Virus record (IMG/VR): IMGVR_UViG_3300045988_014133
Coordinates: 1-37,613 of that record
Origin: a virus
Length of the DNA: 37,613 bases
Direction: 5' to 3' (one strand)
Position 1 is the first letter of the stretch; every line of letters begins with the position of its first letter. Positions 2,864 to 10,072 of this stretch are shown one piece after another. The position numbers were made by a program, and so were the translations under genes. The notes below the pieces were generated by a model that worked only from the letters and a program-made list of their open reading frames with translations, ran no database searches and was not told the DNA's origin.

Positions 2864-3208
2864 ATGGATATTTCTATTGTAAATGATTACTTTGTACCGG
2901 CGGTAGTTGTGATGTGCCTTTGCATCGGCTACATCATGAGAAACTGGATGCCAACCGATAACAAGTGGATTCCAACGGTGCTGTTTGTCGTCGGTATCGT
3001 ATGCGGAATCGTGGTAGACGGTCTGACCTTTACGGCGGTAGTTTCCGGTGCAGTGTCCGGACTGGCGGCGGTCGGGCTGAATCAGGCGTTCAAACAGGCG
3101 TTAGGCTTGAATGTTCGCCCGGACATTGAAACCACCGACGAAGAGGTGCAGGATTACGAACTGGCAGAGGAAGAGGATGAAGCAGAAGAAGGTGAAGATG
3201 ATGAGTAA
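2864..3208 (+). CDS. Holin (Phage_holin_5 / Hol44-like)
   Basis: It has a GGAGAAGGAG RBS and hydrophobic segments (VPAVVVMCLCIGYI, WIPTVLFVVGIVCGIVV, AVVSGAVSGLAAVGLNQAFKQ). It ends in an acidic tail and overlaps the start of the endolysin. Confidence 0.75.
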   Translation: MDISIVNDYFVPAVVVMCLCIGYIMRNWMPTDNKWIPTVLFVVGIVCGIVVDGLTFTAVVSGAVSGLAAVGLNQAFKQALGLNVRPDIETTDEEVQDYELAEEEDEAEEGEDDE

Positions 3209-3911
3209 GACGATTGCAGTACATTGTGGGCATGGCGTGAGTTTGGACGGAAGCTGGGATTCCGGCTGTGTATATAAGGGATATTCGGAAGCTAAATTGA
3301 TGCTTGCCATCACGAAGGCGGCGGTCAAGTATTTGAGAGCTTCCGGTGTAAAGGTGCAGTCGGATGCAGACCATGGCAACAACAAAAACATGATTGCCGA
3401 TGTACGACAGGCGAACAATTCCGGCGTTGCCATGTACTTGTCTATCCACTGTGATTATTCCGGAGCACCTAGAGGCGTTATGCCGCTGTACGTGTCCGGA
3501 AGCGGAAAAAAGCTTGCTAAGTGCCTTGAAAAGACCATTAAAAAAGATATGGGTATGAAATCCCGTGGAGTACAGAAGAGAACGGACCTTTTTGAGCTGA
3601 ACGGTACCGACATGACGGCGTGCATCTTGGAGACTGGCAGCATTAAGGGCGACTTGGCTACACTGAGAGACCATCCGGACAAGTACGGAAAAGCCATCGC
3701 AAAGGGCGTGTGCAGCTACTTAGGCGTGCCTTTCAAGGATGGGAAGAAGAAACCCAGTAAAGAAATCTACCGTGTAAGAAAAACATGGAAGGATACAAAG
3801 AGTCAGAAGGGCGCCTTTTCGTCACTGGAGAACGCTAAGAAATGTGCCGATAAAAACGGCTACTCTGTTTTTAACAGTAAAGGAAAGGCGGTGTATCGTG
3901 GCAAAAAGTAG
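3198..3911 (+). CDS. N-acetylmuramoyl-L-alanine amidase endolysin (Amidase_3) with a short SPOR-like C-terminal module
   Basis: Amidase_3 motifs are IAVHCGHG, LSIHCDY and ACILETGSI. The C-terminus YRVRKTWKDTKSQKGAFSSLENAKKCADKNGYSVF resembles SPOR / cell-wall-binding repeats. The start is taken at ATG 3198 after AAGGTG; the track start at 3111 lies inside the holin. Confidence 0.85.
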   Translation: MMSKTIAVHCGHGVSLDGSWDSGCVYKGYSEAKLMLAITKAAVKYLRASGVKVQSDADHGNNKNMIADVRQANNSGVAMYLSIHCDYSGAPRGVMPLYVSGSGKKLAKCLEKTIKKDMGMKSRGVQKRTDLFELNGTDMTACILETGSIKGDLATLRDHPDKYGKAIAKGVCSYLGVPFKDGKKKPSKEIYRVRKTWKDTKSQKGAFSSLENAKKCADKNGYSVFNSKGKAVYRGKK

Positions 3912-4602
3912 GAAGATAAACAGGACTTACGTTGTTATCAAGGCTGACCCCCTGCGGGTCAAGCCTTCTTACAAGTCGAAGCGGAAAAAGACCCTTGCGG
4001 TCGGAACGAAGGTACACGCCACAAGGATTAAAGGCTATTATATCTACGTTCCGGCACTTAAGGGATGGACCATCTGGAAGGACTCAAAGGGACAGAAATA
4101 CGTCCGTCTTGTCTCAGTCCCGAAAAGCACAAAAGCAGACAAGCTGCTGACGGCACTGAAAACCAACGCCGCAAAGATGATTAAGGCACACGTGAAGTAT
4201 TCGGCTAACCATGCCTGCAAGAGCCTAGCAAGCGCCTTGAAGAACAAGAGAACGAATTGTGCTACATATGTTTCTTTTGGCTTGCAGTCAATCGGCGTGC
4301 TTCCGAAAGGAAAATACATTTGGCTTGATACAAAGATTCACGGGTCCGGAAGCTCCATCATCCGGAAGAAGGCAAAAATCGCATATCCCCGAAAATCGTG
4401 GAAATACGCAAAGCTGAAAAAGGGGGACATCTGCGGTTTTGCCAATAAGCCGCATACGATGGTATACGCCGGTAAAAGCAAACACGGCTATCCTCTGTGG
4501 TATTCGGCAGGCGGTTCCGATGTGAAAGCCAAAAACTACGGACCGAAACGAAAGAAAAGTTATGAGAAGCGGAAAATCTATGTGAGGATTCGGTTGAAGT
4601 AA
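3898..4602 (+). CDS. Putative second cell-wall hydrolase: SH3b-like N-terminus plus NlpC/P60-like Cys/His domain
   Basis: GTG 3898 follows AGGAAAGG. The N-terminal pattern (LRVKPSY...GTKVHATRIKGYYIYVPALKGWTIW) is SH3b-like. The C-terminal TNCATYVSFGL ... KKGDICGFANKPHTMVYAG resembles the NlpC/P60 Cys and His motifs. Confidence 0.45.
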   Translation: MAKSRKINRTYVVIKADPLRVKPSYKSKRKKTLAVGTKVHATRIKGYYIYVPALKGWTIWKDSKGQKYVRLVSVPKSTKADKLLTALKTNAAKMIKAHVKYSANHACKSLASALKNKRTNCATYVSFGLQSIGVLPKGKYIWLDTKIHGSGSSIIRKKAKIAYPRKSWKYAKLKKGDICGFANKPHTMVYAGKSKHGYPLWYSAGGSDVKAKNYGPKRKKSYEKRKIYVRIRLK

Positions 4603-4850
4603 TGACAAATGAGGTAATATGGACAAAAATAGTGCTTGAGAGATTTATTGAACAGGCTAATTTGTCGGAGGATGAAGAAATCGTGATTCGGACACGGGCG
4701 GCAGGGTGGAGCAGAATAAAGCAGGCGATGGAGCTGAATCTTTCGGTATCGACGATAGACCGGATTATCAGCCGGTTAAAACGGAAGTATGACGAAGTGC
4801 AGGCATCCGACCCAATCCTACCCCCACGGCAACGTGGAGTTTACAAGTGA
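4602..4850 (+). CDS. Small sigma-70 region-4-like HTH protein
   Basis: The TAATG overlap with the preceding stop suggests translational coupling. The HTH is LSVSTIDRIISRLKRKY. A strong terminator follows. Confidence 0.5.
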   Translation: MTNEVIWTKIVLERFIEQANLSEDEEIVIRTRAAGWSRIKQAMELNLSVSTIDRIISRLKRKYDEVQASDPILPPRQRGVYK

Positions 4851-4865
4851 ATAATGTGATAGTAA

Positions 4866-4906
4866 GGCGGCAGTTAATCGAAAGATTAGCTGCCGTCTTT
4901 TTTTTT
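4866..4906 (+). terminator. Rho-independent terminator closing the late/lysis operon
   Basis: The stem GGCGGCAG / CTGCCGTC has 8 bp including one G-U pair, and is followed by nine T. Confidence 0.85.
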
Positions 4907-4936
4907 ATCATTAAATCACAAGAAAGGAGAAAAGCC

Positions 4937-5275
4937 ATGTACGGATTTTATCAGCAGCCATACGAACAGCTTATTCGTGTAACTGGACTTGACGGCGCTA
5001 AAGCGTATCAGATGCGCCCTAACAGTGCCGTAGCACTATTCGATGGGGCGGAAGATATCTTCTATCTCAAATCAACGGACGGTGCAGGATTTCCGACGAT
5101 TCGGGTATTCCGGTTCGAGGAAGTCACAGCTACACCGGCAGCGGCGCCGGAGTATATCACCAAGGCAGAATTTGAAAAGTTCAAGGAGGAAATCTTAAAT
5201 GGGCAGCAGCATATTCAGGAATCAGAACAACCAAATCGGCGACCTAGCAAACAAGGCAAAAGCCATGATGAATGA
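4937..5275 (+). CDS. Hypothetical protein (112 aa), moron cassette gene A
   Basis: AAAGGAGAAAAGCC precedes ATG 4937. The track start at 4847 would span the terminator. No recognised motif. Confidence 0.6.
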   Translation: MYGFYQQPYEQLIRVTGLDGAKAYQMRPNSAVALFDGAEDIFYLKSTDGAGFPTIRVFRFEEVTATPAAAPEYITKAEFEKFKEEILNGQQHIQESEQPNRRPSKQGKSHDE

Positions 5276-5402
5276 TTCAAGGCAGATGCAGAACGTAATG
5301 GGTATGTTATCCGGAAGGGGAATGTCAGCGGAACAAATGGTCCGGTCCATTTGTAAGGAACGTGGAATCGACGTGAACGAATTCATGAACAGCATTAAAT
5401 AG
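5199..5402 (+). CDS. Hypothetical protein (67 aa), moron cassette gene B
   Basis: A strong AAGGAGG (5183-5189) lies 9 nt before the ATG. It overlaps gene A by 77 nt in another frame. Confidence 0.5.
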   Translation: MGSSIFRNQNNQIGDLANKAKAMMNDSRQMQNVMGMLSGRGMSAEQMVRSICKERGIDVNEFMNSIK

Positions 5403-5515
5403 CAAATTCCTATTTAAAAAAATCGCCAAAATTGTAAATACCAATCAGCTTTAACACTTGCAAGTGAAAGATATTTTAATTATTTATTCGGTCTATCCGA
5501 AGGAAGGAGAAGAAA

Positions 5516-6097
5516 ATGGAAAACATGAGCTTGTCGGACATTGCCGCCGTGACAAAGGATAATGATGATTATTTTGGCAACGGTGGAATGTGGATTTTCG
5601 CCCTACTGATTCTGATGATGATGGGCGGCGGATTCTGGAATAGAGGGAATCAGCCTGAACCGGTGACGGAAGCGGGATTATGCAATGCGATGAACTTCAA
5701 CGGTCTGGAGAACAGCGTGGGAAGACTGAACGATAGCCTTCAGAACGATTACATGGGCGTGCAGAACGGCATTTCAAATCTCGGTTATGAGACTTTGAGA
5801 AACTTCAATGAGACGCAGAACAGAATTTCTGACTGTTGTTGCATTACCCAGCGTGGTATTGACGGAGTGAATTATAACGGAGCAATCAATACGGCGAACA
5901 TCAATGCGAACACTACAGCACAGACTCAGAAGATTCTGGATGCGTTAGCTCAGAACAAAATTGAGTCATTGCAGGCACAGGTAACACAGCTTCAGATGCA
6001 GAACGCAATGTGCGGTGTTGTAAGATACCCTAGCGCTACTACTTATTGTAGCGGTGCTAATCCGTTCGGTGCCTGCGGATGCGGAAACGCTATTTAA
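5516..6097 (+). CDS. Single-pass membrane protein with N/Q-rich helical region and Cys-rich C-terminus, moron cassette gene C
   Basis: It has a GGAAGGAG RBS and a TM segment MWIFALLILMMMGGGF. It also carries DCCCITQ and the tail CGVVRYPSATTYCSGANPFGACGCGNAI. Confidence 0.7.
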   Translation: MENMSLSDIAAVTKDNDDYFGNGGMWIFALLILMMMGGGFWNRGNQPEPVTEAGLCNAMNFNGLENSVGRLNDSLQNDYMGVQNGISNLGYETLRNFNETQNRISDCCCITQRGIDGVNYNGAINTANINANTTAQTQKILDALAQNKIESLQAQVTQLQMQNAMCGVVRYPSATTYCSGANPFGACGCGNAI

Positions 6098-6131
6098 TAG
6101 GGTGTAAAGGCATATAGCCAAGGAGGACATT

Positions 6132-6536
6132 ATGAGTTGTAAAAGTGCGATTTATGCGGTGAATACCAGCACGGCGACTATTCCGGAAGGTGGAACCTAT
6201 CAGCCAAATACAATAATTAGAAGATTTGGTCAGTGCTGCCAAATGGCGAACAACGCCATGGAGCTGAACGGTCAAGGCTACTATGATGTTGCGGTCACGG
6301 CTACGGTGGTAGGAACTGCGGTAGGAAACGTCACAATGGCGGTTTATCAGGACGGTACAGCCGTTCCCGGAATGAATGCTACACAGACCATCAAGGCAAT
6401 CGGCGATACCGTCACGCTTGGAACAAGTGGCATCGTGCGGGTGTACTGCGGTAAGAACAGTTCGACTCTTACTATTGTTATCGGCGGTCAGGCGGTCACC
6501 GGAAACAATCTTGCTATCGACATTACAAAGCAGTAA
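6132..6536 (+). CDS. Beta-rich Cys-containing protein (possible C1q/BclA-CTD-like sandwich), moron cassette gene D
   Basis: AAGGAGG lies 6 nt before the ATG. Alternating beta-strand-like segments include YYDVAVTATVVGTAVGNVTMAVYQDG. The fold assignment is a guess from pattern only. Confidence 0.65.
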   Translation: MSCKSAIYAVNTSTATIPEGGTYQPNTIIRRFGQCCQMANNAMELNGQGYYDVAVTATVVGTAVGNVTMAVYQDGTAVPGMNATQTIKAIGDTVTLGTSGIVRVYCGKNSSTLTIVIGGQAVTGNNLAIDITKQ

Positions 6537-6550
6537 GAGAACAAATGTTC

Positions 6551-6579
6551 TTGCATGAACTTTGAAAGAGGTGTATAAT
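6551..6579 (+). promoter_or_regulatory. Putative sigma-A promoter (TTGCAT-17 nt-TATAAT)
   Basis: TTGCAT is at 6551-6556, followed by a 17-nt spacer and a perfect TATAAT at 6574-6579. It lies just after the stop of gene D. Confidence 0.5.
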
Positions 6580-6585
6580 AAAACT

Positions 6586-6681
6586 GTGAATTTTACCATG
6601 CGTTCTAGGTATCATTGAGCGCCTCCTTTCATTAAATACGAGTTCTATGGAAAAAGAGTCGGAGTTATCCGGCTCTTTTTT
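6586..6681 (+). ncRNA. Putative ~95-nt small RNA (promoter-to-terminator unit without a credible ORF)
   Basis: It is bounded by the 6551-6579 promoter and the 6651-6681 terminator. The only plus-strand ATG (6598) opens a 6-codon ORF with no RBS. The RNA contains the anti-SD-like CCTCCTTTCAT (6622-6632). Confidence 0.3.
6651..6681. terminator. Bidirectional rho-independent terminator
   Basis: The stem GAGTCGG / CCGGCTC has 7 bp including one G-U pair and a 6-nt loop. It is flanked by AAAAA upstream and TTTTTT downstream, and it overlaps the stop of the minus-strand 72-aa gene. Confidence 0.75.
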
Positions 6682-6899
6682 CATGTTACAACTGCAAGCG
6701 ATTCAACGTAAACAGCAGTCCTATTAACGTATCCTTGCACGGTATTTACAAGGAAACCTTTGATTTCAACGAAAGAGAAAAGCGGAATATATGTCGTATC
6801 GGCGCCAATACAGCGGATAAATACGCCATCACAATTTACGATAAAGAAGTTCTTACAACGATGAGATAACAATCCGATAAGATTTACGTAATTAGACAT
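6681..6899 (-). CDS. Hypothetical 72-aa protein (Cys-containing, beta-rich), AT-rich accessory gene
   Basis: On the minus strand AAGGAG lies 7 nt before the second ATG (6899). The first ATG at 6905 is only 1 nt from the SD. The protein begins MSNYVNLIGLLSHRCKNFFIVNCDG. Confidence 0.55.
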   Translation of the reverse strand: MSNYVNLIGLLSHRCKNFFIVNCDGVFIRCIGADTTYIPLFSFVEIKGFLVNTVQGYVNRTAVYVESLAVVT

Positions 6900-6937
6900 A
6901 CACATACTCCTTTCATGATTACAAGTAATATGTGGCG

Positions 6938-6966: not shown

Positions 6967-7056
6967 ACCATTTTCGGGGTGGAAAACAAGACAAAAAAAG
7001 CCCTTTTTATTACCTTTTGATAAGTGATAAAATACAATAGAATGGAGGTGTTAAAG

Positions 7057-7620
7057 ATGAAGGTGGAAATTCACGAAATATTGAAATTCGTACGGCAAAA
7101 GTCGAAGAAATCACAAGAAGAACTAGCATTTCTATTGCAGGTAGACGTTAAGACAATTCGGAAGTGGGAGACCGGAAAAAGTGAGCCGCCGTGTTCAAAG
7201 GTTGTCGAATGGTTCCGGGGCGTTGGCATGAACCCAATACCTTATTTGCTTGTGTACGCATATCCTAATGATTTCAAATTGGAAGAAATGCAGGATGCAG
7301 ACAAGATAGCAAAGCTCTATGAACTCATCACCGAGAACTTGACCATCGAGGATAAGAAGGCATTGGTTCAGATATTTTCGGGAATGCACGGGTCAAGTCC
7401 ATCTTCCGTGATTCAACTCATGTTGGCACATTTGAGCAACCCATTGTTGGAGCGAATTTATGTTGCAGAATTTATACTGGAGCAGTACAGATTCAACCAT
7501 ATGAACGATGAAGAGAACTACCATCCAAACATAGAAATGCTGGAGCGGGCAGTGCAGGCAGCCAAAGACGCCGTCGAGAAGGGCGATGAAGGCTACATGA
7601 ATACTATGGATGATATGTAA
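7057..7620 (+). CDS. XRE-family HTH protein with a ~120-aa C-terminal domain of unknown function
   Basis: GGAGGTG lies 6 nt before ATG 7057. The HTH is KSQEELAFLLQVDVKTIRKWETGKSEP. It is the last gene before attP. Confidence 0.75.
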   Translation: MKVEIHEILKFVRQKSKKSQEELAFLLQVDVKTIRKWETGKSEPPCSKVVEWFRGVGMNPIPYLLVYAYPNDFKLEEMQDADKIAKLYELITENLTIEDKKALVQIFSGMHGSSPSSVIQLMLAHLSNPLLERIYVAEFILEQYRFNHMNDEENYHPNIEMLERAVQAAKDAVEKGDEGYMNTMDDM

Positions 7621-7651
7621 CATGAGTGTAACATTATTCTTCTATGTAACA
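7616..7651 (+). promoter_or_regulatory. Three direct TGTAACA repeats (candidate integrase arm-type sites, P arm)
   Basis: TGTAACA occurs at 7616-7622, 7627-7633 and 7645-7651. A fourth copy at 7823-7829 lies on the other side of the core. Confidence 0.4.
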
Positions 7652-7730: not shown

Positions 7731-7738
7731 AGGGTGTC

Positions 7739-7764
7739 GGGTTCGACTCCCACCATCTCCACCA
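7739..7764 (+). other. attP core: 3'-terminal fragment of an ssrA (tmRNA) or tRNA-Ala-type gene
   Basis: GGGTTCGACTCCCACCATCTCCACCA holds a T-loop, a T-stem 3' strand, a 7-nt acceptor strand, discriminator A and an encoded CCA. It is very close to the Bacillus-type tmRNA 3' end. The 5' T-stem partner upstream does not pair, so this is a fragment and not a gene. Confidence 0.7.
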
Positions 7765-7770
7765 ACAAAA

Positions 7771-7802
7771 GCCTTGAAGCAATTGAGTTTCAAGGCTTTT
7801 TT
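7771..7802 (+). terminator. Rho-independent terminator supplied by the phage for the reconstituted host RNA gene
   Basis: The stem GCCTTGAA / TTCAAGGC has 8 bp and a 10-nt loop. It is followed by TTTTTT. Confidence 0.8.
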
Positions 7803-7845: not shown

Positions 7846-8967
7846 CTACTTTTCCACAGATTTTGAGAACATTTCGCCCAATGCGGAAGCTAGTTTATCT
7901 TCTTCCTCTTTCTTCTCGAAGAGATGCGTATAAATTCCGAGTGTCGTTGAAACATTAGCGTGACCCATGCGCTTTGAAACGGTTGCGGGGTCAGCGCCCA
8001 TTGAAATGCAGATGGAAGCGTACGTGTGACGGAGAGCATGAAAGGTAATCGGTTCAAGTCCGATGCGCTCCATGTAACGACTCAATCTTTTGGCGCACTG
8101 TTCCGGGTGGAAAGCTTCACCATTTTGTTCTTTAATTAGGTAGTCCGAATCGGTCCACAACGGACCGAGCTTCAATTTTTGCTCTATGTGATGTTTTCGG
8201 AGAGCCTTCACATCACGAATAACTGGCGCCGGAAGGATGCACAAGCGTTCACCGGAGGACGTTTTGGTATCCTTCACGAATTCGTTTCCTATCCGGTGCA
8301 TATATCTAGTGCGCTTGATAAAGAATCTTCCATCATCCGGTATTTCATCTTCCAGTATCCCCATTATCTCCCCACGACGAAGAGAGCCGAAAAGAGCCAG
8401 CTCAAAACAGACCCTTTGGTCAAGTGGGATTTCGTCAAGGTGGGAACAGAACACGGTGAAGTCTTCCGGCGAAAGTATCTGAATTTCTTTTTTCTTGTTT
8501 GATGGAAGTATAACATCATGACATGGATTGCTTTTCAAGAGTTCCCAGTTAACCGCAATCGAACAGCAAAGGCGGAGGATGGAATAGGTATCTTTCACGG
8601 TTTTCGGGGATAAATTCACCGATAAATCATCTATCCACGCTTGAATGGTCCGAGGCGTTAATTTAAGCAAATCTAGCGTTCCTATGGTGGTATCAATCCT
8701 CTTAAGTGCAGCGTTATATCCGTAAATGGTATTTTGAGATTTGTTATTGATAACCTGATTCCATACGGCGCTACACATATCCGACACTGTTTTACATTGC
8801 GAGGACACGACGGAAATTGACTCAACCCACTTATCTATTTGAGCGTTAAGGTCCTTTTTCGATGTGGCATGAAACACTTTTGATTTCTGCTTTCTTTTCC
8901 CGGTATAGTCCGGCTCTAAGTCTACCCATACCCTATATTTATTCCGCTCTAACTGCTTGATATGCAT
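7846..8967 (-). CDS. int: Tyrosine recombinase / phage integrase
   Basis: The 373-aa protein has a catalytic region LRRGEI ... HALRHTYASICISMGADPATVSKRMGHANVSTTLGIYTHLF (R..HxxR..Y). It is adjacent to attP. Confidence 0.95.
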   Translation of the reverse strand: MHIKQLERNKYRVWVDLEPDYTGKRKQKSKVFHATSKKDLNAQIDKWVESISVVSSQCKTVSDMCSAVWNQVINNKSQNTIYGYNAALKRIDTTIGTLDLLKLTPRTIQAWIDDLSVNLSPKTVKDTYSILRLCCSIAVNWELLKSNPCHDVILPSNKKKEIQILSPEDFTVFCSHLDEIPLDQRVCFELALFGSLRRGEIMGILEDEIPDDGRFFIKRTRYMHRIGNEFVKDTKTSSGERLCILPAPVIRDVKALRKHHIEQKLKLGPLWTDSDYLIKEQNGEAFHPEQCAKRLSRYMERIGLEPITFHALRHTYASICISMGADPATVSKRMGHANVSTTLGIYTHLFEKKEEEDKLASALGEMFSKSVEK

Positions 8968-8971
8968 AACA

Positions 8972-9379
8972 TCACTTCCTTTGACCGACTATAAAATCAA
9001 GCTGCTTATCCATATAGTCAACTTCTGAATCGTCTAAGTTGGAGGCTTTTATCTTTGCGCAAAGGTCGTTAGATGAGCTTTGCATTTCGACTAAAGCCTT
9101 AAACTCGGGATTGTCGGAATCAAGAATATAGTCGATGTAATATTCCTTATTGAGTCCGTCCGGAATATCCGCTTCCGTGAACCCGGCGAGGTAAGCAGGG
9201 TTCACATCTAAAACCTGTGCAAATTTCGCAACCTTATCACGTGGAATATCTCGTTCCCCTTTTTCGATTTTATTGATAGTAGACCTAGAACTATAACCGA
9301 CAAGCCGCCCCAATTCTGCCTGTGATAATCCTAGCCGCTCTCTTTCTTTTTTTATTCTCTTGCCTATATTATCCATCAT
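8972..9379 (-). CDS. CI-like lysogeny repressor (XRE HTH)
   Basis: The HTH is LSQAELGRLVGYSSRSTINKIEKGERDIP. It lies upstream of int in the same orientation and diverges from the early lytic genes. Confidence 0.85.
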   Translation of the reverse strand: MMDNIGKRIKKERERLGLSQAELGRLVGYSSRSTINKIEKGERDIPRDKVAKFAQVLDVNPAYLAGFTEADIPDGLNKEYYIDYILDSDNPEFKALVEMQSSSNDLCAKIKASNLDDSEVDYMDKQLDFIVGQRK

Positions 9380-9458
9380 AAACGCCTCACTTTCTGTTAG
9401 TTCTTATTGATATAGTACCATAAAGTTAAACAAAAATTAAATAATAATTAAAATAATG

Positions 9459-9487
9459 TTGACATGGAGTCGACATAGTGCTAATAT
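9459..9487 (+). promoter_or_regulatory. Early rightward promoter (TTGACA-17 nt-TGcTAATAT)
   Basis: TTGACA is at 9459-9464 and TAATAT at 9482-9487, with an extended -10 TG at 9479-9480. It lies in the 143-bp divergent switch region. Confidence 0.6.
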
Positions 9488-9522
9488 AGACGTAGGCTAA
9501 AAGTCTACGAAAGGAGGGAATC

Positions 9523-9729
9523 ATGACCGACAAGCAGAAGTTTGATGAGCGTGTTCAGGAGTGCGGCTACAGAATGGAATATGTGGCGGAGCGACTCGGG
9601 ATTACCGTTCAAGCCTTATATAACAAGCGTTGCGGAACTAGAAGCTTCACGGCTCCGGAAATCAAGACGTTATGTGAGCTGTTGTCAATCGATACGATGG
9701 CAGAAATGCGTGATATTTTTTTGTGCTAA
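9523..9729 (+). CDS. Cro-like / small HTH early regulator
   Basis: It has an AAAGGAGGG RBS and is the first rightward gene opposite the repressor. The HTH is MEYVAERLGITVQALYNKRCG. Confidence 0.7.
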   Translation: MTDKQKFDERVQECGYRMEYVAERLGITVQALYNKRCGTRSFTAPEIKTLCELLSIDTMAEMRDIFLC

Positions 9730-9762
9730 GTGTTGACAAATAGCCAACGAAAGGAGGGCAAT

Positions 9763-9954
9763 ATGTACGGATTCGTAACGGTACCGGAATTCAGTGTGTT
9801 GATGGGCATCAGCACAGACACGGTATACCGGCTAGTCAAGAATGATGCAATCCCTTACTACAAGGTCGGGCGGAACATCAGAATCAGAATTGACGATTTC
9901 AGAAAGGGGCGTGAAACAGACTATGAAGAATTCCAAATTCTGGAAGAAGATTAA
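9763..9954 (+). CDS. xis: Excisionase-family (MerR-like HTH_17) DNA-binding protein
   Basis: AAAGGAGGG precedes ATG 9763. The pattern VTVPEFSVLMGISTDTVYRLVKNDAIPYYKVGRNIRI is typical of excisionase-family HTH proteins. Confidence 0.65.
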   Translation: MYGFVTVPEFSVLMGISTDTVYRLVKNDAIPYYKVGRNIRIRIDDFRKGRETDYEEFQILEED

Positions 9955-10072
9955 GGCGTTCCTCGAAGATGAAGCGGCTGAGGAGTACAACGGCGACACG
10001 CTGGGAATGTACATCGGAGGCACGATAGGAACACTGCTCATGGTAGCAATGATTTTAATAGGAGGTATGTAA
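9923..10072 (+). CDS. Small C-terminally membrane-anchored protein (49 aa)
   Basis: The internal ATG 9923 of track ORF 9842..10072 gives MKNSKFWKKIKAFLEDEAAEEYNGDTLGMYIGGTIGTLLMVAMILIGGM. The RBS is weak. Confidence 0.4.
   Translation: MKNSKFWKKIKAFLEDEAAEEYNGDTLGMYIGGTIGTLLMVAMILIGGM

Follow-up and report, generated by a model that had tools for sequence, protein, structure and literature searches.

The stretch of DNA analyzed here (the window) comprises 37,613 nucleotides of the IMG/VR virus record IMGVR_UViG_3300045988_014133 and looks like the circularly permuted genome of a temperate siphophage. On its plus strand it carries a compact unit of four small genes, A to D, which follows the late/lysis operon. 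The last gene of that operon encodes an 82-amino-acid (aa) helix-turn-helix (HTH) protein (4602 to 4850), and just behind it lies the intrinsic terminator that ends the operon, with a 16-pair stem (4864 to 4899) followed by a T-run to 4906. A strong terminator before gene A had been predicted in a first-pass annotation made by a model from the sequence alone, and it was recovered here: the terminator stretch folds at −33 kcal/mol, and the stem at 4864 is the longest by far of the three terminator-like sites in 3.4 kb, a count that is not above shuffled expectation. The T-run merges into a −10-like hexamer, TATCAT (4906 to 4911), which was read from the sequence as a candidate A-D promoter, with the Shine-Dalgarno sequence (SD) of A 12 nt and its ATG 26 nt further on. 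Genes A (112 aa, 4937 to 5275, SD AAAGGAG), B (67 aa, 5199 to 5402, SD AAGGAGG), C (193 aa, 5516 to 6097, SD GGAAGGAG), and D (134 aa, 6132 to 6536, SD AAGGAGG) each start with ATG at the first coordinate given and are each led by a strong SD, as had been stated earlier. A second, bidirectional terminator (6654 to 6681; −26.4 kcal/mol in RNAfold for the plus strand), with an A-run before it and a T-run after it, closes the unit, so that the term terminator-bounded was correct; the same element also ends a convergent minus-strand gene.

Homologues of A to D stand in the same order at dozens of unrelated loci, and all four are therefore real genes. Loci were collected by, among other searches, scanning GTDB representative genomes with a profile of C, which yielded 69 loci, and hidden Markov models (HMMs) of the window proteins were then iterated over all collected loci. 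By source, the models found C in 75 of 76, A in 57, D in 48, B in 43, and the HTH protein in 34. The module genes always lay on the same strand in the order HTH-A-B-C-D. In total, the A-B-C-D module, usually with an upstream HTH homologue, was present at 70 non-redundant loci with a GC content of 30 to 67%; the locus counts given below for A, B, D or its substitute D2, and HTH were made after redundancy removal and include variant families in the same slots. Contigs encoding distant homologues of C and D had the same four-gene order after different tail and lysis genes and ran on into replication genes, and no integrase was found in their examined flanks. Among phages of Gram-positive gut bacteria, carriers of the module number in the thousands. 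A blastn search with the cassette against 50,697 phage records gave no match.

None of the four proteins resembled a known virion, lysis, defense, or regulatory family in Pfam, PHROG, NCBIfam, or PADLOC, as the first-pass annotation had stated for virion, lysis, and regulatory proteins. Nothing meaningful was returned for A to D by Pfam, NCBIfam, or PADLOC, and the PHROG matches, obtained for A, C, a B-like variant, and a papain-like neighbor, were just to families without assigned function. The homologues are all named "hypothetical protein" in their source records, and the literature searched contained no description of the module, of DUF7841, or of the proteomes of these phages. Many relatives carry extra genes, encoding DUF7841 proteins or helical proteins with Tyr/Arg/Gly-rich tails. 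The papain-like family (about 126 aa; phrog_3754, no assigned function) is found just upstream or downstream of the module at 19 of the 70 loci. Its signature reads N..DC.(I/V)RAI ... GH...I..G...D, examples being L013 3713 to 4141 and L072 1123 to 1509.

C is the core of the module, with at least 5009 homologue clusters, and a mean column identity of 82% was obtained over 39 selected close relatives that are 71 to 97% identical to the window protein. It matches phrog_16490 (E value of 6e-10), which has no assigned function, and a search of PDB sequences with its profile gave nothing above noise. In line with its earlier description as a single-pass membrane protein with a CCC triplet, C has one Gly-flanked hydrophobic segment at residues ~23 to 41 and the triplet at residues 107 to 109. 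The tail in front of the segment is acidic and conserved (SLSDIAAVT), with L6 and D8 to T13 invariant, and the domain of about 150 aa behind it has 12% charged and 35% N/Q/S/T residues. The protein contains eight Cys, of which those at 56, 107 to 109, 166, and 187 are invariant. Five Cys had been counted in its last 28 residues, but only four are there (166, 178, 187, and 189). C also varied together with the protein encoded next to it. At loci where D is replaced by the Cys-rich protein D2, the median length of C was 262 aa, compared with 204.5 aa elsewhere, and the median number of Cys was 12, compared with 8 (p = 1e-6, without correction for phylogeny). In Clostridium phage CPD1 (L078, 2682 to 3929), two C-sized genes, CPD1_038 and CPD1_039 (207 and 205 aa), stand in tandem, and only the second was matched by the HMM.

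Modeling with AlphaFold and comparison with Foldseek, the route the first-pass annotation had named for the cassette proteins, gave a confident fold for D and an unusable model for C. The guess that D resembles C1q/TNF-like or BclA C-terminal sandwiches, offered at the time as weak, was borne out by an AlphaFold2 (AF2) monomer model (25 homologues) with a predicted local distance difference test (pLDDT) score of 94.4 and a predicted template modeling (pTM) score of 0.87, for which Foldseek placed BclA at the top. The model is all-beta, with 11 strands forming a jelly roll that spans all 134 residues. The C-terminal domain (CTD) of BclA (3twi/1wck) ranked first against the PDB (E value of 2e-10; template modeling [TM] score of 0.77), followed by F-BclA, BxpB (8d02; TM score of 0.82), and ExsFA, and then by EDA, BAFF, C1q, and a cyanophage fiber domain. 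There were 296 PDB chains at E ≤ 1e-3, and the best 50 were nearly all BclA, BxpB/ExsFA, TNF-family proteins, or C1q. On the strength of this model, D can confidently be placed among the C1q/TNF-type jelly rolls, in the structural class of BclA-CTD. At the level of sequence, D had no Pfam match at E ≤ 1, no meaningful NCBIfam match, and no PDB match by family profile.

Among known proteins, the exosporium proteins BclA-CTD and BxpB/ExsFA of Bacillus (1wck, 3twi, 8d02, and 7r1m) share the jelly roll of D at TM scores of 0.72 to 0.82 and E values of 2e-10 to 7e-8, and BxpB and ExsFA are, like D, stand-alone domains of about 135 to 150 aa without a signal peptide. However, identity to D is only 10 to 18%, and D is without a Pfam or NCBIfam match. 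Compared with BxpB and ExsFA (10 to 12% identity), D is phage-borne and occurs in Coriobacteriia-labeled loci and in a virulent phage, and we do not count it as a member of their family. Unlike BclA, it has no collagen-like GXX stalk and no N-terminal exosporium-targeting domain, and it is partnered by a membrane protein and two small soluble ones rather than by ExsY or BclA. The best matches in BFVD (TM scores of 0.83 to 0.91) were uncharacterized proteins of 130 to 153 aa from gut phages labeled "Myoviridae/Siphoviridae/Podoviridae sp.", two of them automatically named "BclA protein".

A homologue search returned 58 close relatives of D, and a HMMER scan found 946 representatives at 50% identity, of which the best 150 were nearly all stand-alone proteins of about 130 to 145 aa. 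D has neither a signal peptide nor a stalk, contains 10% charged residues, and is rich in N/Q/S/T. Its Cys are at positions 3, 35, 36, and 106; in the alignment, M1-S2-C3 is invariant and C106 nearly so. Some apparently longer D proteins (P0403, P0341, and others) probably reflect miscalled starts, and P0054 and P0312 are products of in-frame C-D deletions rather than informative fusions. Either D or D2 was present at 59 of 67 loci, D2 accounting for 17. D2 is a Cys-rich beta protein, unrelated to D, that likewise starts with MSC or MAC. No relationship between the two families was found by hhalign, and a profile search of PDB sequences gave no match for D2. The subunits of endospore appendages (Ena) have a jelly roll with an N-terminal Cys connector, and D and D2 are comparable to them in being small beta proteins without a signal peptide, with an N-terminal MSC or MAC and conserved Cys in the body; however, no DUF3992 or PDB sequence match was found for either.

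Gene A was present at 47 of 59 loci and its protein has 444 homologue clusters. A P/Q/Y-rich N terminus, variable among relatives, precedes a conserved core of ~55 aa (LIRVTG.DGAKAY...NS..LFD...D..Y.K.TDGAGFPTIR.F.F), a "YVTreEFe" helix, and a charged tail. A matches phrog_21718 (E value of 1e-13), again without assigned function, and a profile search of PDB sequences gave no relative. As reported earlier, B overlaps A, by 77 nt and in a different reading frame, and this overlap is conserved at nearly every locus. The start codon of B is fixed by its SD and by a conserved M(G/A)SS(I/L)F start, and because it lies within the 3' end of A, the two genes are probably translationally coupled. B, which together with B-like proteins in its slot was found at 51 of 59 loci, is a small, helical, Met/Gln/Asn-rich protein with repeated NPQ motifs. 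Members of its family gave sub-threshold matches to the XPC-binding domain (four members, best 0.004), to STI1-HOP_DP (5e-4), and to SRP_SPB/SRP54-M. The XPC-binding, STI1, and SRP54-M domains hold hydrophobic peptides, and we treat these matches as a lead and not as family membership.

We next consider how the module may be controlled. The 82-aa HTH protein stands alone and appears to be of the GerE/LuxR or sigma-70 region 4 type, with all matches below the curated cut-offs. The window protein matched TIGR02937 (sigma70-ECF region 4) at an E value of 9e-4 and 18.9 bits (cut-off 42.9), with a sub-threshold match to HTH_23 as well. Its homologues matched GerE at an E value of 8e-5 and 22.6 bits (cut-off 23.5) and Sigma70_r4_2 at 20.2 bits (cut-off 25.7), and seven further proteins matched Sigma70_r4 or r4_2 in a Pfam scan of neighbors. 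A homologue lies ≤3.5 kb upstream of the module at 31 of the 59 loci with enough flank, and, judged from its sequence and position, the protein is likely a dedicated regulator of the module. A terminator was found ≤130 nt from the HTH stop codon for 20 of 32 non-redundant HTH genes, compared with 108 of 844 (13%) control open reading frames (ORFs), and a hexamer matching TATAAT in ≥5 of 6 positions stood within ~20 nt of the T-run at 10 of these 20 loci, compared with 27 of the 108 controls. The layout of HTH stop codon, strong terminator, TATAAT-like hexamer a few bases from the T-run, and SD recurs in L004, L008 to L012, L023, L026, L028, L049, and L073 and in the temperate Dulem virus 35.

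At the candidate A-D promoter, the place of a −35 element is taken up by the 3' arm of the terminator hairpin and shows no conservation, from which we infer that this promoter depends on an activator. An operator for a GerE-type activator could be provided by the inverted repeat in the terminator. L061 (5095 to 5202), L069 (6165 to 6240), and L071 (6195 to 6272) have no such hairpin behind the HTH gene; in its place stand three or four direct repeats of ACACTTTT, which are candidate binding sites for the HTH protein, upstream of a TTGAAG...TGAGATAAT promoter. Three other loci (L009 ~770 to 850, L010 ~3510 to 3570, and L012 ~880 to 950) contain a further SD-like box, AAAGGAGCGT, between the promoter-like site and A, and behind it a hairpin that ends in a T-run; this could be a leader or attenuator, and the window is without such an element. 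An internal promoter upstream of C had been proposed from a TTGCAA at 5458, but this site was not picked up in a consensus scan and has no acceptable −10 hexamer at 15 to 19 nt. The long B-C spacer in which it lies is not conserved at other loci.

The position of the module in its genomes varied. The commonest recognizable upstream neighbors were lysis genes (Amidase_2/3, Peptidase_M15, CHAP, M23, and three holin families), and a late placement after lysis genes was seen in the window and in L001, L007, L008, and L023. Three upstream neighbor proteins, at three loci, had Pfam matches to AgrB (best E value of 6.5e-5); these may be phage agr-type quorum-sensing genes or holin-like false positives. 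The proximity to lysis genes, which in a few loci lie downstream of the module instead, raises the question of whether the module is an accessory or timing device for lysis, in which C would sit at the membrane with holin and endolysin in an XhlA- or antiholin-like manner while its soluble partners adjust or finish the breakdown of the envelope. The membrane segment and helical region of C would suit such a role, C gave a very weak match to an Rz-like spanin PHROG (E value of 0.91), and a small helical membrane protein paired with a soluble all-beta oligomer beside holin and endolysin genes is known from XhlA/BhlA and XepA/YomS of PBSX and SPbeta, a pairing similar to that of C and D. However, there was no XhlA Pfam match, XepA/YomS was absent from the best 50 Foldseek matches of D, and the module often lies away from lysis genes, in a head operon and in an early region. 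C is highly conserved beside differing holins (Hol44, Dp1, Phage_holin_1, and r1t), whereas an antiholin would be expected to coevolve with its holin, and an antiholin identity was disfavored on this ground. The hosts are mostly monoderm, so that spanin logic does not apply, and with a sole match at an E value of 0.91 a spanin identity was rejected. No qualifying sequence match supported membership in the spanin, Rz, or XhlA families, the linkage to holin and endolysin genes is not obligatory, and a TNF-like knob has no known lysis role. We consider a lysis function unlikely.

Placements away from the lysis genes were found in other phages. In the record of the cultured, virulent Clostridium perfringens phage XP41-N3, neither an integrase nor a repressor is annotated, and almost all genes lie on one strand. 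Its module (8187 to 9991) lies in the early region, 3.8 kb past the lysis genes and upstream of gam/erf, behind an antirepressor gene and the terminator of that gene, and it is flanked by terminators of its own. The related phages vB_CpeS-17DYC and CPD1 have the module placed as in XP41-N3. In Dulem virus 35, the HTH gene, a terminator (7618 to 7649), and A-B-C-D stand between the minor capsid gene and the scaffold-like and major capsid protein (MCP) genes, so that the HTH gene has accompanied the module into the head operon, and the slot between lysin and integrase is occupied by other genes. Since no plus-strand terminator precedes the MCP gene, the module of this virus is probably cotranscribed late. 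Elsewhere, three upstream neighbors matched Phage_min_cap2 and one downstream neighbor matched Phage_scaffold.

The first-pass annotation had taken the cassette for a local lysogenic-conversion moron. With the same A-B-C-D order at 70 non-redundant loci, among them a virulent phage and a head operon, this is not tenable as a local assignment. The variable genomic position indicates a mobile, autonomous unit, which fits the term moron-like and is not tied to lysogeny or to the attP slot. Morons, first described in lambdoid phages, are autonomous accessory transcription units, and the module resembles them in being compact and terminator-bounded, with apparently its own promoter, at varied sites in unrelated genomes. 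It differs from them in having at least five coevolving genes and a dedicated regulator, in being extremely widespread rather than sporadic, and in its carriage, which extends to a virulent phage and to the inside of a late structural operon.

A more specific form of the conversion idea is that, in a Firmicute that forms spores, the unit is expressed from the prophage and remodels the spore coat, exosporium, or cell surface. In keeping with this, the nearest solved structures of D are the exosporium proteins BclA-CTD, F-BclA, BxpB, and ExsFA. Mother-cell-made coat proteins are without signal peptides, as are the Cys-rich C, D, and D2. In addition, the regulator is GerE-type by its sub-threshold matches, some relatives have Tyr/Pro/Gln-rich tails and weak rubrerythrin-like neighbors, and the unit in the window would lie at the attR end of the prophage. 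Against it stand XP41-N3, a virulent phage whose record lists neither integrase nor repressor, and Dulem virus 35, in which the module lies within the late head operon and other genes fill the lysin-integrase slot. Furthermore, no coat or exosporium family was matched in Pfam or NCBIfam. The high-GC loci L014 to L019 (61 to 67%) were, in five of six cases, labeled Coriobacteriia or obvious misbins, and they include a 289-kb Collinsella-labeled contig with a tape-measure-like gene upstream of the module. Coriobacteriia are not known to sporulate, and if the labels are taken accordingly, a spore-specific role cannot be general. Modification of the spore coat or exosporium, which had been put forward earlier, therefore fails as a general function; the spore-specific reading is the least compatible with the distribution of the module, and we regard prophage-driven conversion of this kind as very unlikely.

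Taken together, we are confident of the following joint picture: the genes are real; they form a widespread, coevolving, and separately transcribed module with an HTH gene; D is a knob of the BclA/BxpB kind and C is the conserved membrane component; and the module occurs beyond temperate phages and beyond hosts that form spores.

The location in the head operon of Dulem virus 35 bears on another explanation, in which the proteins form a particle-associated or post-lysis extracellular fiber, decoration, or matrix that is assembled in the cytoplasm from proteins lacking signal peptides, held together by Cys cross-links, and released with the virions. In one subfamily, the module is probably cotranscribed with scaffold and MCP genes. 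TNF/C1q knobs are common at phage fiber tips, and the low-charge, N/Q/T-rich composition of C and D is typical of fibers. The invariant Cys3 and nearly invariant Cys106 of D, the Cys-rich D2, and the papain-like family that accompanies the module at 19 of 70 loci would also fit. Unlike an integral part of a virion, however, the module moves among phages named in BFVD as myo-, sipho-, and podoviruses and among genome positions; a regulator of its own belongs to the module, a membrane segment is present in C, and D2 had no match to Ena/DUF3992 or to any PDB sequence. Over the collected loci, the D HMM found no tail or fiber protein and matched just one ORF, that in the D slot, in each of the 48 loci where it gave a match. 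For the same reason, we disfavored the idea that D is a decoy of the phage's own receptor-binding protein. On balance, a virion-linked or extracellular structure of this type seems improbable.

A related proposal is that of a dedicated, separately switched operon for coat-building in the infected cell: with C as membrane anchor, D or D2 and partners of low complexity (A, B, and Tyr/Arg-rich proteins encoded downstream), sometimes joined by the papain-like enzyme, would self-assemble in the cytoplasm into a Cys-cross-linked layer or fiber that is freed at lysis, following the logic of exosporium and Ena, and the palindrome of the terminator would serve as a GerE-type operator. This coat-like logic without spores is attractive, but we hold it to be improbable as well.

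Two observations are compatible with an intracellular, membrane-tethered role. The module of the virulent C. perfringens phages immediately precedes genes for recombination and replication, and the charges flanking the segment of C permit an N-out/C-in orientation with the Cys-rich domain in the cytoplasm beside A, B, and D, all without signal peptides. Such a role might be counter-defense against host systems triggered by late proteins or the organization of replication or assembly at the membrane. However, there was no PADLOC or other defense-related match, cytoplasmic proteins seldom have as little charge as C and D, and nothing links any module protein to nucleic acid or to a known defense trigger. 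An intracellular role appears very unlikely.

We tentatively favor the reading of the module as an accessory operon of the lytic cycle whose products form a complex with a knob and a membrane anchor, acting at the envelope by exclusion, as had also been suggested earlier, or by the masking of receptors; the chain as a whole is possible, with less than even chances of being correct in every step. We favor it because the sole anchored component, C, is the most conserved while the knob is variable, and because a surface-like composition is combined with the behavior of a transferable accessory that is not part of one virion or lysis system. In setting it out, we infer the promoter and its activation, timing, protein contacts, the topology of C, and the biological role. 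The operon would be laid out as an HTH gene, a terminator with an abutting promoter, and A-B-C-D. The HTH protein would be made as the last product of the late operon and would activate the terminator-abutting promoter that lacks a −35 element. C would enter the cytoplasmic membrane as an anchor, and A and B, made in coupled amounts, may serve as soluble assembly partners, B perhaps as an STI1/DP-like holdase for hydrophobic or low-complexity segments. D, as a trimer-type TNF/C1q knob of the BclA/BxpB kind, would dock on C and complete, at the host envelope, a "coat-like" complex rich in Cys and low in charge. Such a complex would most likely serve to alter what other phages meet at the surface or membrane of an infected or lysogenic cell, or of the debris of that cell.

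Several points weigh against this scheme. No module protein has a functional annotation in Pfam, PHROG, NCBIfam, PADLOC, or the literature searched. D is without a signal peptide and could reach the surface only through lysis or by some uncharacterized means of export. The topology of C is ambiguous, since one K/R stands on each side of the segment and the N-terminal tail is net negative, and the AF2 model of C (39 close homologues; pLDDT score of 40, pTM score of 0.16) was unusable. The proposed dependence of the A-D promoter on an activator, with the HTH protein as the candidate, is read from sequence alone. In XP41-N3, a distance of 2.6 kb separates the module from the HTH homologue, which closes the late operon and is followed by a perfect early promoter; since the module comes further on, behind a terminator of its own, the link between HTH gene and module is not universal. 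Finally, the superinfection exclusion systems known to us are single small early or prophage proteins and not five-gene late units. Sie2009 of lactococcal phages, Ltp of TP-J34, and Imm and Sp of T4 are small phage membrane proteins, encoded by accessory genes, that act at the envelope. The module showed no homology to such proteins (Pfam and PADLOC), and its multiprotein make-up with a TNF-like knob and its apparent late regulation are atypical for them.

In the window itself, the genes around the module were as follows. Upstream, a tail-fiber-like gene (64 to 2235) is followed by genes for a Hol44 holin (2864 to 3208; PF16079) and an Amidase_3 endolysin (3111 to 3911) and by an unannotated ORF of 252 aa (3844 to 4602). 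The latter, without a Pfam match and conserved only in L007 and L008, looks by eye to be SH3b-like toward its N terminus and NlpC/P60-like, with Cys...His, toward its C terminus, and may be a second lysin. Downstream, between D and attP, lie the convergent minus-strand gene of 74 aa (6681 to 6905; no Pfam match) and a gene for a 198-aa HTH_3 protein (7024 to 7620) with weak RstR/MqsA-type matches. Homologues of the 74-aa gene (72 to 78 aa) occupy the same spot downstream of D in L007 and L008, and the two genes may be the true prophage-expressed cargo of the slot. In the stretch between the D stop codon and the terminator (6537 to 6650), a TTGCAT-17 nt-TATAAT arrangement is present on the plus strand (6551 to 6579), and at ~6617 on the minus strand, a strong SD and an ATG open an ORF of 30 codons, overlapping D at its 3' end; these features could be a pair of a small RNA and a small peptide.

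The attP core is a 33-nt fragment of the 3' end of transfer-messenger RNA (tmRNA) at 7732 to 7764, with the sequence GGGTGTCGGGTTCGACTCCCACCATCTCCACCA, ending in TCCACCA. It lies just past the 3' end of the integrase gene and adjoins a terminator (7767 to 7800) and that gene (7846 to 8967, minus strand), behind which a cI-like repressor gene follows (8972 to 9379, minus strand). This arrangement supports the earlier placement of the cassette between lysin and attP, and of attP at ssrA. The tmRNA fragment was seen solely in a permissive Rfam scan, as a partial match with an E value of 0.032; in the window, Rfam gave no RNA gene at gathering threshold and ARAGORN gave no tRNA or tmRNA. Upon integration, ssrA would receive a new 3' end and a terminator from the phage.

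What is new here differs between the parts of the module. A, B, and C are covered neither by a family in Pfam, NCBIfam, or PADLOC, nor by a PHROG with a named function, nor by the literature searched. The fold of D is already known and is automatically annotated in virome records, and the module as a whole we rate as an autonomous phage accessory unit, a known kind of element. Its control region is unusual, in that a small HTH gene is followed by a terminator and, directly beside this, by a candidate promoter without a −35 element. The findings place an exosporium-type fold (BclA/BxpB) in a phage context that is not tied to spores and link it to a highly conserved membrane protein. If true, the coat-building proposal would define a previously unrecognized class of phage-made envelope or extracellular structure. 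Because the module is present in the cultured virulent C. perfringens phages XP41-N3, vB_CpeS-17DYC, and CPD1, its function is directly testable, and with C alone forming >5000 clusters at 90% identity in public metagenomes, one functional result could annotate thousands of gut-phage genomes.

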